Assembly: GCA_937929825.1 (NCBI GenBank)
Contig: CALFUV010000007.1
Location: forward strand, 1 to 53,564
From: an uncultured Patescibacteria group bacterium
GTDB lineage: Bacteria > Patescibacteriota > Patescibacteriia > Veblenbacterales > UBA10138
DNA: 53,564 nucleotides
Reading direction: 5' to 3'
Positions 5,635 through 29,149 of this stretch are shown here, in pieces. Made by a program: the position numbers and the translations under genes. Below the pieces are notes generated by a model, which saw nothing but the letters and a program-made list of their open reading frames with translations, made no database searches and was not told the DNA's origin. How positions within the stretch are numbered: the stretch's first letter is position 1; every line of letters starts with the position of its first letter.

Positions 5635-6606
5635 TTAAAAACCTATATATCTAACTTCTTCCTGCAATTGAATACCAAATTGATCACGCACTTGTTGTTT
5701 AATGTATGAAATCATCTGCACTACCTGCTCGGCCTTACCACCGCCAATATTTATTAAATAATTAGCATGATCCTCCGACACCTGAATACCCCCAATAGTT
5801 TTGTTTTTTAGGCCAGCTTTATCTATAAGCCAACTTGCTGGCAACTGACCTTTTTTAATAAAGTCTTCTATTTTTTCCTCTCCTTTAAATTTATGTCTAA
5901 CTTCTTCAATATCTACAATAGGTACATTCATAAAAATACAACCCGATGATGGTTTGTGATACGGCTGACCCCGTCGCGCGGCAATGAATTTTTTTACTAA
6001 TTCTTGACTTGTCTCAAAACTACCTTTATTTAAATTAAACAAAGCACTCAAGATAATATCATTATTTTTTTTAAAAATTGAATTCCGGTAAGTAAACTCA
6101 CATTCCTCTTTGTTTAACAATACCAATTTATCTTCACGGCAAACTGTAACATTTTCTACCCAATCTCCAATAAAACCACGTTCTACCTGCGGCACACCGG
6201 CGTTGCCATAAATCGCCCCGCCCACAGTTCCAGGAACTGCTACCAGCGGTTCAAAACCAGACAGGCTGAAACTAACAGTCTTCTGTACTAAAAATCCTAA
6301 ATTAACTCCGGCTTCAGCTGTAACTTTAGTACCTTCTATTTGCCAATTATTATTTCTTGCCAATACTACCAAACCATTAAAACCCTTATCTGAAACTAAA
6401 ACATTGGATCCACCGCCTAAAACCAAAAATGGGATTTTAAATTCATTAGCTACTTGTGCGGCTTTAATTAAATCAGCGCTTGAGCGTGCCTCAAAGAAAA
6501 ATTTAGCCGGCCCGCCAATTTTAAAATTAGTATAAGGCGCCAGTAGAACCCTGCTTTTAACTTCTTTTCCTAAATTTTCCTTTAATTGTCCTATGGTTAC
6601 TGCCAT
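5635..6606 (-). CDS. murB: UDP-N-acetylenolpyruvoylglucosamine reductase (likely start ATG 6606 rather than 6645)
   Basis: YTNFKIGGPA, LGGGSNVLVSD, PGTVGGAIYGNAG, SSGCIFMN, HANYLIN, LQEEV. Confidence 0.96.
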   Translation of the reverse strand: MAVTIGQLKENLGKEVKSRVLLAPYTNFKIGGPAKFFFEARSSADLIKAAQVANEFKIPFLVLGGGSNVLVSDKGFNGLVVLARNNNWQIEGTKVTAEAGVNLGFLVQKTVSFSLSGFEPLVAVPGTVGGAIYGNAGVPQVERGFIGDWVENVTVCREDKLVLLNKEECEFTYRNSIFKKNNDIILSALFNLNKGSFETSQELVKKFIAARRGQPYHKPSSGCIFMNVPIVDIEEVRHKFKGEEKIEDFIKKGQLPASWLIDKAGLKNKTIGGIQVSEDHANYLINIGGGKAEQVVQMISYIKQQVRDQFGIQLQEEVRYIGF

Positions 6607-6751
6607 AGATATCTTAAGACTAAAATAAAAAGCCTTATTTAGCAAACCAAAATCTATGAAACAATGATTATATATTCTGTTTTTTGCCTTAATTTTTACC
6701 CTCTTTAAGCTAAAAATCTTATATTTATTAAGCTAAAATTTTCCACAAGCC

Positions 6752-6780
6752 TTGACAAAATCTTCAACTTGCGCTATATT
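6752..6780 (+). promoter_or_regulatory. Sigma70-type promoter driving the structured leader/islet
   Basis: TTGACA (6752-6757), 17-nt spacer, TATATT (6775-6780); predicted TSS ~6786-6788. Confidence 0.8.
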
Positions 6781-6786
6781 TATATG

Positions 6787-7121
6787 TTATTTAAAAATCA
6801 ATCATAGTGTGATCTGCCGGTTAGTGCTTGCTGGTAATTCCTACCAAGAGTATTTATCTAGGTATCAGACTAAAGCACATAAATTCCAGCTGTAGTTGAA
6901 TAAACAGTAATGGATGTGAAGCAAAAATTGGTATCTGGATAAGCACTTTTTCTGTTAGCACATTTACAAACATTTGTATTTACTGACTAGGAGGGAGACA
7001 AACGATTAAGTAATCGCTTCTAACTGGTTCACACTAGTTACTGGCGACATACATAATCGCGGATACAATGGTCTTCGGACAAAGTTGTGCCATGATCTCC
7101 TCCCGATCAGTAAAAACAAAT
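6787..7121 (+). ncRNA. Unassigned large structured RNA / 5' leader (~330 nt)
   Basis: Many helices with G-U pairs only on the + strand: 6849-6868/6928-6947 (20 bp, one mismatch), 6973-6998/7096-7120, 6805-6824/7020-7036, and a C(UUCG)G hairpin 7071-7080. Lies between a consensus promoter and the next ATG, with no sizeable ORF. Confidence 0.7.
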
Positions 7122-7146
7122 TATAAACAAAAAAAGGAAACAAACA

Positions 7147-7503
7147 ATGAATTCGCTTGAAAAAAAACCAGATTATTATTTCTGGATAGGAGTGCTACTA
7201 ATAATTACCGTCGTGTTGGTGGTACTTACAGGCATAATAGGGTTTAATCCGACACCTGATGGGAGCACCCCATTGTTCTTCACAATTTTATCCGTATTGT
7301 TACTAATCTGTATATACTTATGGATATTAATAATACTAGTATATACTAGGAAAGAAATTGTAAGTTGGATTACTACGGAATTTGGGCTGCCAAGGTACGT
7401 CTCAAAATTAATATACCTTAGTATATTAATATTTACCACAATAATTTTCTTTAATCCCATCACAATAAATTTCTTCGTTCGTTTCTCCTTCCTAGCGCTC
7501 TAA
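7147..7503 (+). CDS. Hypothetical integral membrane protein (~3 TM)
   Basis: 118-aa ORF with three hydrophobic segments and AAGGA upstream; no family recognised. Confidence 0.7.
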   Translation: MNSLEKKPDYYFWIGVLLIITVVLVVLTGIIGFNPTPDGSTPLFFTILSVLLLICIYLWILIILVYTRKEIVSWITTEFGLPRYVSKLIYLSILIFTTIIFFNPITINFFVRFSFLAL

Positions 7504-7620
7504 TCAGCCAAGCCTAACTTCATCAAAAAATTATAAAAAGTTGGGCTCTCTCCTAGGCTCGTGAACTGCTCGCGCTTCTGGGAGATAAATATACAAAAAA
7601 CAAACATAGGAGTTAAAAAA

Positions 7621-8085
7621 ATGAAGATCTTAATATTCGTAACCTTTTTGTTGTTGGTTGGCTGTGCTACTAACTACCAAATAATTCCAGTGGCTACTGA
7701 ACCACCAACAAATGAACTTGAAGGGGTCAGGTACTTGTTGGTGCCTGCTCAAGATACAAAAAAAGGTACATCAATGTTTTTAGATATTAAGAACATTGAA
7801 CAAGGAACGATTAAATCAGTAAGCATCAATGGTATAAAGATAGGTAATTTTGCTGCCGGCGAGGGTTTATATATGAGGTTTACTAATCTCATATATAGTC
7901 TGTCTGAAAAAAAGTGGGACAGACGCTGGGACAGAGTCTATGGCGCTTATCGCACCATATGCTTGATTCATGTGATAATTCACGTCGATTTAATCTCTGG
8001 AAAATCCAGAAATCCTCATTGGAGTAAAGATTTCTGGATAAGCGAGGACAATATTGGCCACGGCACAATTAGAATATCTATTTAA
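7621..8085 (+). CDS. Hypothetical lipoprotein (start ATG 7621)
   Basis: AGGAG Shine-Dalgarno before ATG 7621; MKILIFVTFLLLVGC signal with lipobox LVG-C; followed by a terminator. Confidence 0.75.
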   Translation: MKILIFVTFLLLVGCATNYQIIPVATEPPTNELEGVRYLLVPAQDTKKGTSMFLDIKNIEQGTIKSVSINGIKIGNFAAGEGLYMRFTNLIYSLSEKKWDRRWDRVYGAYRTICLIHVIIHVDLISGKSRNPHWSKDFWISEDNIGHGTIRISI

Positions 8086-8094
8086 TTTAATTTT

Positions 8095-8130
8095 GCGGTT
8101 AGATTTCTTCCTTAATCTAGCCGCTTTTTT
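8095..8130 (+). terminator. Intrinsic terminator of the islet
   Basis: GCGGTTAGATT-8 nt-AATCTAGCCGC 11-bp stem (one G-U) followed by TTTTTT. Confidence 0.85.
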
Positions 8131-8139
8131 ATATAAAAA

Positions 8140-8177
8140 CATTTTACTTTTTGTCTAGGTAGACAAAAAGTAAAATG
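8140..8177. repeat. Perfect 18-bp inverted repeat with 2-bp spacer
   Basis: CATTTTACTTTTTGTCTA-GG-TAGACAAAAAGTAAAATG. Confidence 0.95.
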
Positions 8178-8236
8178 AGTAAAATTTAAAAAATGTTACT
8201 TACACTTATTAATTATTAATTAAAAGTCACTAACCA

Positions 8237-9643
8237 TTAAAACTCACTACCTGTCATCAAACCAAATTGGGAAATTAATTTATCTCCTACCTGCCAAACA
8301 TTACCAGCCCCCATGGTAATCACTAAATCACTGCGATTAGCGGTTTTGGCTAAATAATCAACCGCTTCAGTAATAGTTGGCTTGTAAATAGTTTTGGTAT
8401 GATACTTTATCACCTCGTCTACTAACTTAGCTGATGTTATTTCACCTGTTTTTTCACGGGCTGAAGAATAGGTATCAATAATTATCACCTCATCAGCTTC
8501 CCCAAAACATTGACCAAAATCACTTAATAAAGCTTGAGTACGGCTAAAAGTATGTGGCTGAAACACGACTCTAATATTTTTATAAGGATAAAAAGCCCGT
8601 GCGGCCTTCAGTGTGGCTTTAATTTCTGCCGGGTGATGACCATAATCATCAATCAAAGTTACACCATTAATTAATCTACCCTTCATTTCAAAACGCCTTG
8701 CTGTACCTTCAAAAGAAGCTAAACTTGTTCTAATTACTTCCAAATCAACTCCTAAACGTCTAGCTACAGCAATTACAGCCAAAGCATTAGCTACATTATG
8801 AGAACCTATTAACTTAAGCCAAAACTCACCTAAATACTCCTCCCTTTCCATAACAGAAAAATGCCACCTGCCCTCATCTAACCACATTCTGACCATTTGA
8901 AAATGACCATTAGTTAAACCATAACTGATGATTTGTTCGGGTTGTAAACCAGCCTCAGCAACTGCTTTTTTAACATTGTCTGTATCATAACAAGCCACCA
9001 CAAATCCAGTTGGGGGTATTTTTTTCAAAAAATCTACAAAGGTGGCAAAATAATTTTCAGGCGTAGGAAAAAAATCAGGGTGATCCCATTCTATACTGGT
9101 TAAAACCGCTATCTGGGGCGTAAAATATTTAAATTTATTTTGATATTCATCAGCTTCAAACACAAACAACTCGCCACTACCTAATAAAGCGTTGCCACTA
9201 AACTGCGGAACTGCTGAACCAATAACAGCCGAGGGGGATAAATTAGCATCTTTTAAAACATGAGCCAGCAGGGCCGAAATGGTAGTTTTACCATGAGAAC
9301 CACAAACTGCAATAGATTTATATTGACGAGTTAATTCTCCTAAGGCTTGAGCATAATCAAGTACAGGAATCTTTTTAGCTAAGGCCGCTTTTACTTCCAA
9401 ATGATCATTACCGTAAGCACTAGAGCGAATAACTAAATCAATAGGCTGTTCCAAATGTTGGGCATTAAACTCTTCCCAAAAATTAATACCTGATTGGTTT
9501 AAAACCTGATCTGTAAAAAATTTCTCATCTGTATCGCTACCACACACCTCCCAACCACGGCTTTTTAAAAGTTGAGCCAGGGCAGTCATGCCCACACCTT
9601 TGATGCCAATAAAATATATTTTTTTAGCCTGCTCTAAATTCAT
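8237..9643 (-). CDS. murC: UDP-N-acetylmuramate--L-alanine ligase
   Basis: IGIKGVGMTALA, GSHGKTT, EADEY, DHPD, DDYGHHP, FQPHTFSRT, MGAGN. Confidence 0.97.
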   Translation of the reverse strand: MNLEQAKKIYFIGIKGVGMTALAQLLKSRGWEVCGSDTDEKFFTDQVLNQSGINFWEEFNAQHLEQPIDLVIRSSAYGNDHLEVKAALAKKIPVLDYAQALGELTRQYKSIAVCGSHGKTTISALLAHVLKDANLSPSAVIGSAVPQFSGNALLGSGELFVFEADEYQNKFKYFTPQIAVLTSIEWDHPDFFPTPENYFATFVDFLKKIPPTGFVVACYDTDNVKKAVAEAGLQPEQIISYGLTNGHFQMVRMWLDEGRWHFSVMEREEYLGEFWLKLIGSHNVANALAVIAVARRLGVDLEVIRTSLASFEGTARRFEMKGRLINGVTLIDDYGHHPAEIKATLKAARAFYPYKNIRVVFQPHTFSRTQALLSDFGQCFGEADEVIIIDTYSSAREKTGEITSAKLVDEVIKYHTKTIYKPTITEAVDYLAKTANRSDLVITMGAGNVWQVGDKLISQFGLMTGSEF

Positions 9644-27892: not shown

Positions 27893-29149
27893 CTAAACTC
27901 GCATAATACTCGCGCCAATATTCTTTAATCTTTCTTCCAAAAATTCATAACCTCGATCAATAGGATAAACATTCTTTATAATACTTTTACCCTTCGCAGC
28001 TAAGGCGGCTGTTAATAAAGCCAAACCGGCTCTAGCGTCCGGCGCTTCTATAGTTCTACCTTCAAGCTGCCTAGGCCCTTGTATAATAACTCTATGTGGA
28101 TCACATAAAGTAATGTCCGCGCCCATTTGATTAAGTACATCAGTAAAAAACAGACGACCTTCAAAAATAGTTTCGTGAACTAAACTATGACCAGTAGCTT
28201 GAGTTAAAAGAACTGTCATAGAAGATTGCATATCTGTAACAAAACCGGGGTACTCATGCGTTTTAATATCAACTGCCCGCAAATTTTTCCAATGTTTAAC
28301 AAGTATTTCATTCTGGCTAATATCAAACTCCGCTCCCATATCGCGCCAAACACTCAAAGGAACTTCTAAATGCTCCGGCTGACAATTAGTAACTGTTATT
28401 TGACTGTTGGTGGCTAAAGCCAACATTATAAAAGTACCAGCCTCAATCCTGTCAGGCATCATAATAAATTCTCCAGCTCCAAGTTCTTTTACTCCTTCTA
28501 TATTTATAATTGGTGTCCCTGCCCCGCTTATTCTAGCACCCTGACTATTTAAATAATTAGCCAAAGCAACTATTTCTGGCTCTAAAGCTGCGTTAATTAA
28601 TTTTGTAAACCCATCTGCCAATACCCCAGCCAGCATCATAGTTTCTGTCCCTGTTACGCTAATTTTGGGAAAAACTATTATTCCGCCTTTTAATTTTTTA
28701 GCGCGTAATTTATAAGTCAGATCCTTTGTTTCTGTTACCTCAACACCTAAAGATTGAAAACCTTTCAAAAATAAATCAATCGGGCGTCGTCCTATTTTAC
28801 AGCCTCCCGGATGAGATAATTCAACCTCGCCAAATCTCGCTAAAAGAGGGCCGGTTAAAACCGTTGACGCCCGTAATTTATTAACTAAATCTCGCGGCAT
28901 TAAGCCAGATGAAACTTTGCTCGTATTAACTTTATAAACACCTTTTGCTAATTTGTTCACACTAGCACCTAATCTTTCCAATATTTCAAATTGTCTTTTA
29001 ACATCTTCTATTTCCGGAACATTAACTAAATCCATATCATCTTTAGATAACAAAGAAGCGGCAATAGCCTTTAAAGCCAAATTCTTAGCGCCGGCTACCG
29101 GCAATTTACCTGATAATTGATATCCGCCCTCAATAATAAAATCTGACAT
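27893..29149 (-). CDS. murA: UDP-N-acetylglucosamine 1-carboxyvinyltransferase
   Basis: GAKN, LRAS, PGGCKIGRRP (active-site Cys), PDRIEAGT, YPGFVTDMQ, IDRGYE. Confidence 0.98.
   Translation of the reverse strand: MSDFIIEGGYQLSGKLPVAGAKNLALKAIAASLLSKDDMDLVNVPEIEDVKRQFEILERLGASVNKLAKGVYKVNTSKVSSGLMPRDLVNKLRASTVLTGPLLARFGEVELSHPGGCKIGRRPIDLFLKGFQSLGVEVTETKDLTYKLRAKKLKGGIIVFPKISVTGTETMMLAGVLADGFTKLINAALEPEIVALANYLNSQGARISGAGTPIINIEGVKELGAGEFIMMPDRIEAGTFIMLALATNSQITVTNCQPEHLEVPLSVWRDMGAEFDISQNEILVKHWKNLRAVDIKTHEYPGFVTDMQSSMTVLLTQATGHSLVHETIFEGRLFFTDVLNQMGADITLCDPHRVIIQGPRQLEGRTIEAPDARAGLALLTAALAAKGKSIIKNVYPIDRGYEFLEERLKNIGASIMRV

Follow-up and report, generated by a model that had tools for sequence, protein, structure and literature searches.

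The window analysed here is a contig of 53,564 bases (C7) from the genome of an uncultured Patescibacteria group bacterium; that genome, labelled G000, comprises 801,535 bases in 30 contigs and is 98.17% complete. Within the window, a non-coding gap at 6646-7146 lies between murB, read on the minus strand, and an open reading frame (ORF) that starts at position 7147 on the plus strand. An earlier note, made from the letters alone, had proposed that this gap carries one structured RNA of ~330 nt that would switch the two genes downstream. Judged by comparison with related genomes, the stretch is two independent conserved RNA modules, here called D1 and D2, behind one shared promoter. Each module represents a new family of RNA structure, although one that belongs to a type already known, the structured 5′ leader. 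The features of the locus are as follows.

5635..6645, minus strand: murB (UDP-N-acetylenolpyruvoylglucosamine reductase; Pfam MurB_C, E 6.7e-27, and FAD_binding_4, E 6.7e-20)
6741..6751, plus strand: conserved block TTCCACAAGCC directly 5′ of the −35 hexamer (family consensus GTTCC..AAC.C)
6752..6780, plus strand: sigma-70-type promoter, TTGACA-17 nt-TATATT, matching at 11/12 positions
6785..6957, plus strand: module D1, single-copy (hairpin, pseudoknot, rod and U-run), 152.7 bits with model R2
6786..6792, plus strand: predicted first transcribed letters GUUAUUU, conserved (consensus.A..TGTTATTT 3′ of the −10 hexamer)
6958..7135, plus strand: module D2, three-way-junction leader of a multi-copy family, 187.6 bits on the plus strand and 49.7 bits on the minus strand with model R1
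7122..7146, plus strand: A-rich spacer leading up to the start codon at 7147, with a weak Shine-Dalgarno (SD) sequence (GGAA, 7136-7139)
7147..7503, plus strand: downstream gene 1, 118 aa with hydrophobic segments, with D2-following homologues in the relatives G001 and G008
7621..8085, plus strand: downstream gene 2, lipoprotein-like, 154 aa from an internal Met, N-terminus MKILIFVTFLLLVGC

That the gap encodes a structured non-coding RNA on the plus strand was borne out by its folding and by its lack of coding potential. For 6785-7146 the folding energy of the plus strand is −98.3 kcal/mol (z −4.47), a value equalled by none of 100 shuffled sequences; the minus strand folds at −83.5 kcal/mol (z −2.29), with two of 100 shuffles as good. 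There is no conserved ORF in the gap, the longest ATG-to-stop ORF having a median length of 0 aa among 30 D2 copies and of 6 aa among 17 D1 copies, and the alignment gaps between G000 and G001 in the RNA region have lengths that are not multiples of three. A small protein-coding gene was considered for both modules and rejected for want of a conserved open frame. The strand had been assigned from abundant G-U pairs, an assignment upheld by a G-U pair in D2 that is invariant in 30/30 copies and by the disparity between the sense and antisense scores of D2 listed above. At gathering score, Rfam 15 returned no match across the whole window, and at E ≤ 10 the region 6600-7250 gave five chance-level matches (12.6-17.6 bits, against cut-offs of 46.7-80), all of them to eukaryotic or archaeal snoRNA or miRNA models or to otherwise unrelated ones. 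The proposal of an undescribed plus-strand RNA, set behind a strong promoter and ahead of a membrane-protein gene and a lipoprotein gene, therefore stands.

The proposal that this RNA is a single molecule did not survive comparison with relatives. When the stretch was searched by BLAST against G000 and 60 relatives, only G001, of the same genus, aligned from end to end (80% identity); G002 and G008 aligned in two pieces and G016 in part. The conserved parts of the locus alignment are its first ~170 nt (D1, 6785-6957) and its last ~180 nt (D2, 6958-7135). These parts abut in G000, G001, G009 and G013 and elsewhere lie 64-578 nt apart, the intervening spacers being unrelated in sequence (~280-390 nt in G002 and G008, ~500 nt in G016). 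Moreover, D1 occurs without D2 in G007, with murB on one side and, on the other, a hydrophobic ORF of 40 aa equipped with a terminator and an SD of its own, the SD lying 30 nt beyond D1, and D2 occurs without D1 at 32/49 loci, two of them in G000.

The spacers of G002 and G008 each contain a short ORF followed by a hairpin: one of 57 aa, hydrophobic, in G002 (L004:915-1088, plus strand) and one of 74 aa, rich in Cys, in G008 (L005:1253-1477, minus strand). The two ORFs are unrelated and neither belongs to a Pfam family. It appears that tiny genes tend to settle in the spacer between D1 and D2.

Central to the one-RNA model was a pairing between a 5′ segment (6805-24) and a part of D2 (7020-36), which would cross the closing stem of D2 and so switch the operon. 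In G000 this duplex is indeed a good one, at −25.5 kcal/mol, and only five of 200 shuffled segments do as well. Among 13 orthologous D1/D2 pairs, however, the duplex is outstanding in none (z −1.1 to +1.3). In G001, which has a P2 tip in D2 identical to that of G000 and a different 5′ segment, it reaches −14.3 kcal/mol (z +0.7). The crossing helix therefore belongs to G000 alone, and with D1 and D2 separable in relatives we consider a single ~330-nt switching RNA very improbable.

The distribution of each module was determined with covariance models, R2 for D1 and, for D2, R1 (from five sequences) and later R3 (from 30 sequences). With R1, D2 was found in 21/21 genomes of the family, which are all the genomes of the order examined. 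At E ≤ 0.001 there were 62 matches at 50 loci, 49 of them sense copies and 13 of them weaker antisense echoes of the same sites; the sense copies number from one to five per genome, in genomes of 0.6-1.3 Mb, and three are in G000 (C7:6958-7135; C14:28866-29044, minus strand; C22:7923-8100, minus strand). Among 147 genomes from ~89 other families of the class, R1 had no match and R3 had matches in 10, with a common core UGGAGG...GCUUCGGCUCAAAG...CCUCCAG. A wider pattern search returned at least 120 stretches at chance level; among the 80 that were listed R2 recognised one, and R3 recognised none of three tried. Two D2-like occurrences in other families are worth recording. At L106 (G106:C1:253916-255828, minus strand) three copies lie within 2 kb, two of them nearly identical in the core, and at L111 (G133:C6:14777-14960, plus strand) the match lies ~850 nt 5′ of an ORF whose N-terminus, ...SRILGLIRDRLLAS, looks MurJ-like.

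The copies of D2 are accompanied by a conserved promoter. The TTGACA-17-TATATT promoter picked out in the earlier note is present at 6752-6780 and is kept both in orthologues and at other D2 loci, and a promoter consensus was drawn from the 44 rows, out of 46, that have at most two hexamer mismatches. An extended promoter, with TGTTATTT a few bases past the −10 hexamer, is common to D2 copies, and in G000 the full motif of conserved block plus promoter is found only at its three D2 loci; the recurring unit is thus promoter plus leader. Over 6300-8300 there is no excess of promoter-like sites as a class (six found, 8.1 expected). The promoter copies elsewhere in G000 lie at C14 ~29044-29113 and at C22 ~8100-8165, both on the minus strand. 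Transcription at the present locus would start at ~6786-6788, and the conserved block together with TGTTATTT may reflect a transcription factor dedicated to these promoters or a contact with sigma.

The structure of D2 consists of a closing helix (P1) and two arms (P2 and P3):

6972..6995, plus strand: 5′ strand of P1, with SD-like GGAGGG at 6990-6995; pairs with 7098-7121
7098..7121, plus strand: 3′ strand of P1, with anti-SD-like UCCUCC at 7098-7103
7003..7058, plus strand: arm P2, base 7014-7018/7043-7047 and tip 7022-7028/7033-7039, present in the minimum-energy fold as well as the consensus
7061..7091, plus strand: arm P3, with a GUC-UUCG-GAC tip (loop 7074-7077) and a 3′ bulge, AAAG, at 7081-7084

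Alone, D2 (6965-7128) folds at z −7.04, with none of 200 shuffles as good. When the 30 best sense copies are aligned, pairing extends to 93.3% of cells, as against 74.5% in shuffled alignments and 32.8-52.5% when the 3′ partner is slid; double changes are seen in 33 of the 41 pairs, and 0/500 shuffles reach any of the five measures used. Since the copies are related, these covariation counts are inflated, yet the slid controls speak for a genuine signal. The outer part of P1, a helix of about 21 bp, covaries in 11/13 pairs and the inner helix is nearly invariant, reading UGGAGG/CCUCCA in the family and GGAGGG/UCCUCC here; the 3′ end of the 16S rRNA in G000 is ...CACCUCCUUUCU. Both helices of P2 have double changes (in 5/5 and 5/7 pairs), with conserved UGGU...ACU at the tip and, at 7026/7035, the G-U pair that is invariant in 30/30 sequences. 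Both helices of P3 have them as well (5/5 and 3/3 pairs), with the consensus cttcGg.caAA. The closing stem drawn for this domain in the earlier note is accordingly kept at 6972-6995/7098-7121 with compensatory changes, as are its 7021-40 hairpin tip and its hairpin capped by C(UUCG)G; the layout of four hairpins in which these were placed gave way to the two arms seen in both fold and consensus.

One further property of D2 emerged from G000 and G001 only. Positions 7005, 7013 and 7048 have changed together between these genomes, and in both of them the strand 7011-7017 can pair with either 7002-7007 or 7044-7048. From these two sequences D2 may contain a bistable element.

A multi-copy element with a long inverted repeat at its ends could also be a dispersed palindromic repeat of the repetitive extragenic palindromic (REP), enterobacterial repetitive intergenic consensus (ERIC) or miniature inverted-repeat transposable element (MITE) type, its inverted ends mimicking a helix, and the weak opposite-strand scores (13 of the 62 matches are antisense) might be read in that way. 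Yet all 49 copies are in one orientation relative to promoter and downstream ORF, the sense score is three to four times the antisense score, and the G-U pairs, of which the invariant one is an example, are strand-specific. The internal arms covary as well, the copies are few (one to five per genome) and partly orthologous across genera, and no transposase context was seen around them. We rejected this explanation on the strength of the fixed orientation, the strand-specific signal, the covarying arms and the low copy number, and give it hardly any credence.

The position of D2 relative to genes is equally regular. In 43/49 copies an ORF of at least 50 aa starts on the same strand within 90 nt of the end of the D2 model, with no terminator between, and an A-rich spacer with an SD lies between D2 and ORF. 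With its steady position and orientation, a promoter upstream and an ORF downstream, D2 has the layout of a cis-acting 5′ leader. In partition-function calculations on 34 copies, the window from −18 to +5 around the start codon has a mean unpaired probability of 0.61, against 0.24 in the body of D2, and the value for the present copy is 0.77. This high predicted openness suggests that the default fold of D2 does not hide the ribosome-binding site.

The proteins encoded behind D2 are diverse, with 67 singletons in an all-against-all BLASTP comparison, and are mostly small and hydrophobic or lipoprotein-like. A hydrophobic segment is present in 33/49 first ORFs and in 136/427 crude ORFs of 50-200 aa from G000, an odds ratio of 4.4 whose p-value overstates the effect, since the copies include orthologues and are not independent. 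At the present locus neither the 118-aa protein nor the lipoprotein-like protein belongs to a Pfam family, and the Protein Atlas gave no hit of at least 0.9 for the downstream proteins; downstream gene 2 has a homologue at the equivalent place in G002. Small hydrophobic ORFs next to a multi-copy RNA brought type I toxin-antitoxin systems to mind, a candidate that we set aside because many of the genes encode lipoproteins of 130-200 aa or non-membrane proteins. Separately, the ORFs that follow three of the D2 copies (L059, L094 and L052, after G008b, G008c and G001b, respectively) encode proteins of 123-137 aa beginning ...KK.G.F.LDLL..LSP..., a start in which we see some likeness to a prepilin-type signal carrying Asp at +5.

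D1 behaves differently in its distribution. With R2 we found one sense match per genome in 18/21 genomes of the order and none in the 147 genomes of other families, and in 17 of those 18 genomes the next module on that strand, 0-578 nt further on, is a D2 copy. D1 is confined to one syntenic locus beside murB, which is the divergent upstream gene bounding the locus, outside the RNA, and is the same neighbour in G001, G008 and G007. Its structural elements are these:

6815..6821/6830..6836, plus strand: hairpin P1, with conserved loop UAGUGCUU, in minimum-energy folds
6824..6829, plus strand: 5′ strand of the pseudoknot, GUGCUU, in the P1 loop; pairs with 6873-6878
6846..6869, plus strand: 5′ strand of the rod; 24 pairs with 6927-6950
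6873..6878, plus strand: 3′ strand of the pseudoknot, AAGCAC, in the internal loop right after the rod 5′ strand
6889..6908, plus strand: apical hairpin, helix 6889-93/6904-08, with loop motif GUUGAAUAA
6927..6951, plus strand: 3′ strand of the rod running into the U-run (UUUUU at 6947-6951); consensus end ...CACCUUUUU

By itself D1 folds at z −3.03, with 3/200 shuffles as good. Among 17 aligned sequences 90.7% of cells are paired, against 39.5-46.0% when the partner is slid, and 22 of 38 pairs have changed on both sides; the observed values were reached by 0/500 shuffles. All five modelled stem pairs of hairpin P1 show double changes. The earlier note had placed a hairpin, UGGUA/UACCA, at 6832-46: the complementary letters are there, and the hairpin that relatives keep is the one at 6815-6821/6830-6836. 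The rod, 24 pairs long, is 94.1% paired with 15/24 pairs changed on both sides, and the CACC-UUUUU end is kept in the consensus of the 17 copies, one row of which ends in N. The long rod followed by a U-run, as originally described, is thus kept at 6846-6869/6927-6950 with compensatory changes in relatives, and so is the apical helix 6889-93/6904-08, in which UGU/ACA here corresponds to UGC/GCA in relatives. The apical motif is doubled in some longer versions of D1. Our terminator scan, which has a loop limit of 8 nt, for that reason did not list the rod.

In the pseudoknot of D1, the loop of hairpin P1, GUGCUU(G), matches (C)AAGCAC of the internal loop as its complement, and pairing runs from 89.7 to 100% over the seven pairs modelled. 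G016 and G003, of the same genus, share a matched change of G-C to A-U (AUGCUUG/CAAGCAU), and in G019 both partners have been replaced, to AGAAGAG/CUCUUCU as read by eye. The retention of the pairing through different sequences supports a loop-to-internal-loop contact in D1. It had been suggested that AGUGCUU competes for 6941-47; this we rejected, as AAGCAC at that 3′ site occurs in only some species, most having AAACAC, and the conserved partner is AAGCAC at 6873-6878.

The end of D1, a stable hairpin running directly into a U-run with genes on the same strand downstream, is the layout of a terminator or attenuator leader. Indeed, the succession of promoter, structured domain, main helix, U-run and genes, which in G007 is complete without D2, gives D1 the anatomy of a terminator-type leader.

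The same strong hairpin and U-run would also suit a gene for a trans-acting small RNA (sRNA). On that explanation D1 would yield an RNA of ~165 nt and D2 one of ~150-180 nt, the latter possibly excised at its closing helix, and the ORFs would be reached by read-through only. A strong conserved promoter stands at each D2 copy, at least four copies have a terminator-like hairpin of their own and no ORF nearby, and P1 of D2 and the rod of D1 have a double-stranded length that would suit RNase III. We nevertheless think sRNA genes an unlikely explanation, given that 43/49 D2 copies lie at most 90 nt from a same-strand ORF start with no terminator between, that D1 is tied to the murB locus and not dispersed, and that no conserved single-stranded seed region was seen in the modules.

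Ligand-sensing riboswitches are another explanation to be weighed for D1, D2 or both, with the D1 rod acting as a terminator and P1 of D2 gating the start site. Both modules occupy a 5′-leader position in fixed orientation and have complex covarying folds; D1 has a pseudoknot and a terminator-like end and in G007 lies directly before an SD and ORF, and D2 has a junction with a conserved unpaired AAAG bulge. The concerted changes at 7005, 7013 and 7048, in two sequences only, keep two mutually exclusive helices in D2. The invariant letters of D2, however, are mostly in its helices and not in its junctions, and its closing helix of ~21 bp should hold whether or not a ligand is bound. In the default fold the ribosome site is predicted to be open, the genes behind D2 are diverse and indicate no common metabolite, and one to five copies per genome of 0.6-1.3 Mb would be a high density for one riboswitch class. 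For D1 no conserved antiterminator pairing was found. The only candidate, in which the rod 5′ strand GUGUUU pairs with CAAGCAC, fails by eye in G019, where the pseudoknot partners have changed. All told, ligand sensing by these modules strikes us as doubtful. The location of the conserved letters of D2 mostly in helices, together with its shared promoter block, would fit a common trans-acting factor better than a metabolite. Of the earlier suggestion that the RNA is a riboswitch or attenuator controlling the gene pair, one half, a terminator-type attenuator in D1, is viable, and the other, a switch worked by the crossing helix, is unsupported, that helix not being conserved. D2, moreover, is predicted to leave the ribosome site open.

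The explanation that we favour, with moderate confidence, is that D1 is a terminator-type attenuator leader, and that D2 is a leader which stabilises the mRNAs of strongly expressed envelope genes and leaves their ribosome site exposed. According to this reading, the promoter at 6752-6780 would drive a two-module leader ahead of the small membrane-protein gene and the lipoprotein gene. In D1 (~6786-6951) the hairpin loop would pair with the internal loop of the 24-bp rod, with UUUUU immediately after, and transcripts would either stop at this U-run, giving an RNA of ~165 nt, or read through into the operon. D2 (~6965-7128) would be one copy of a promoter-plus-leader cassette that is present one to five times per genome across the order and precedes genes for diverse small envelope proteins. 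Its closing helix would lock the anti-SD-like CCUCC to the upstream GGAGG and leave the true ribosome-binding site in the open A-rich spacer. Most likely D2 would act in cis, stabilising the mRNA and keeping the start site accessible, and it may serve as a handle for a shared RNA-binding factor.

Several observations weigh against this explanation. First, a single-stranded 5′ leader of some tens of nucleotides precedes the closing helix of D2, which is thus not the classic protective hairpin at a 5′ end, and stabilisation by itself would not call for features as elaborate as the near-invariant GGAGG/CCUCC helix, the conserved P2 tip and the AAAG bulge. Second, an ORF of 50 aa or more within 90 nt is missing for 6/49 D2 copies, of which one is cut by a contig end, and at least four such copies (G015a, G020b, G015b and G000c) are followed by a terminator-like hairpin, as would fit a free-standing sRNA; these include the C22 copy of G000 and the D1-linked copy of G015. 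Third, ordinary terminators are much shorter than the rod of D1 and less conserved in sequence, no conserved antiterminator for this rod came to light, and R2 detected no D1 in G004, G014 and G020, which are 95, 100 and 95% complete.

A further explanation takes the D2 cassette to be a lineage-specific tag that routes the mRNAs of small membrane proteins and lipoproteins into a dedicated post-transcriptional pathway, with D1 as a second, attenuator-type layer at one locus beside cell-wall genes. Such a pathway may, for example, recruit ribosomes or an RNA-binding factor at the membrane in bacteria without a detectable protein, receptor or RNA of the signal recognition particle (SRP). We regard it as a long shot.

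Among known systems, the favoured stabilising role of D2 most resembles the slpA leader of Lactobacillus. A stable stem-loop formed by the slpA 5′ untranslated region lends the transcript stability and leaves its ribosome-binding site exposed (PMC10221546), and the leader shares with D2 a strong promoter, a stable leader structure, an exposed ribosome-binding site and a surface or envelope protein as product (PMC10221546). Unlike slpA leaders, to which it has no sequence relation, D2 has a three-way junction, conserved motifs of tertiary appearance and an SD/anti-SD-like helix, and as a cassette it is put to use for many unrelated genes within a genome. D1 in turn falls in with terminator-type leaders or attenuators and with orphan riboswitch candidates from comparative genomics, a known category. 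It has in common with them a conserved, covarying 5′-leader fold with a hairpin and U-run before genes, and in G007 a plain order of leader, SD and ORF; it differs in that its terminator stem is 24 bp long, conserved in sequence and part of the conserved fold, with no Rfam match.

Other likenesses are less close. 6S RNA (RF00013), which the earlier note had named as an example of a known family, resembles D1 in size (~170 nt), in its strong promoter and in having a rod with internal loops. The rod of D1, in contrast, is closed by internal sequence, and D1 has a ~60-nt 5′ extension with a hairpin that pairs into the rod and lies in leader position; RF00013 gave no match at E ≤ 10 in the region or anywhere in the genome. 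REP, ERIC and MITE repeats are like D2 in being multi-copy and having a long terminal inverted repeat, and unlike it in orientation, D2 being fixed, as well as in its own promoter, strand-specific G-U pairs, covarying arms and low copy number. The leader-trailer helices of rRNA precursors form RNase III stalks, and P1 of D2 (~21 bp) is likewise a near-perfect helix flanking a structured core; D2, however, encloses a 100-nt RNA of two arms that is no known stable RNA. In the literature on structured RNAs of the Candidate Phyla Radiation (Patescibacteria), leaving aside supplementary motif lists, we found no description of motifs like D1 or D2.

Ultra-small, host-dependent bacteria of this kind are known almost only from their DNA, and to our knowledge the control of their envelope proteins is essentially unknown. 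Against that background, D1 and D2 are two well-supported RNA families that are in no catalogue, with comparative support that is unusually good, and the promoter-plus-leader cassette would define a regulon of small envelope genes across a whole order. The covariance models, the exact helices and the conserved promoter block offer testable handles on gene control in this group, and comparison has corrected an attractive switch model. If the SD/anti-SD-like helix of D2 or the pseudoknot of D1 binds a factor or ligand, a new regulatory class would be at hand; if neither does, the modules would be a further example of stabilising leaders for abundant surface proteins.

Finally, the genome was searched for the housekeeping RNAs and for SRP. 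We dropped SRP RNA as a candidate for D1, there being no helix-8-like motif in the region and neither Ffh nor FtsY to be found. SRP RNA models RF00169 and RF01854 had no match in the genome; PF00448, TIGR00064 and PF02978 had no matches in G000, nor was the DTAGR / G1-G4 motif series present in six frames. In none of the 21 family genomes was an SRP54-type GTPase detected, only P-loop matches of ~19 bits being found, in 12 of them, and PF00448 had no match at E ≤ 1e-10 in 151 genomes sampled from the class or in 121 sampled from the phylum. SecY, by contrast, is present in G000 (356.7 bits). The non-detection may be a true loss, or it may stem from the genome copies searched. The judgement that the RNA at our locus is not RNase P RNA, transfer-messenger RNA (tmRNA) or SRP RNA holds: RNase P RNA and tmRNA are encoded elsewhere in the genome (C3:13427-13810, 234.1 bits, and C4:83517-83901, 94.1 bits, respectively).

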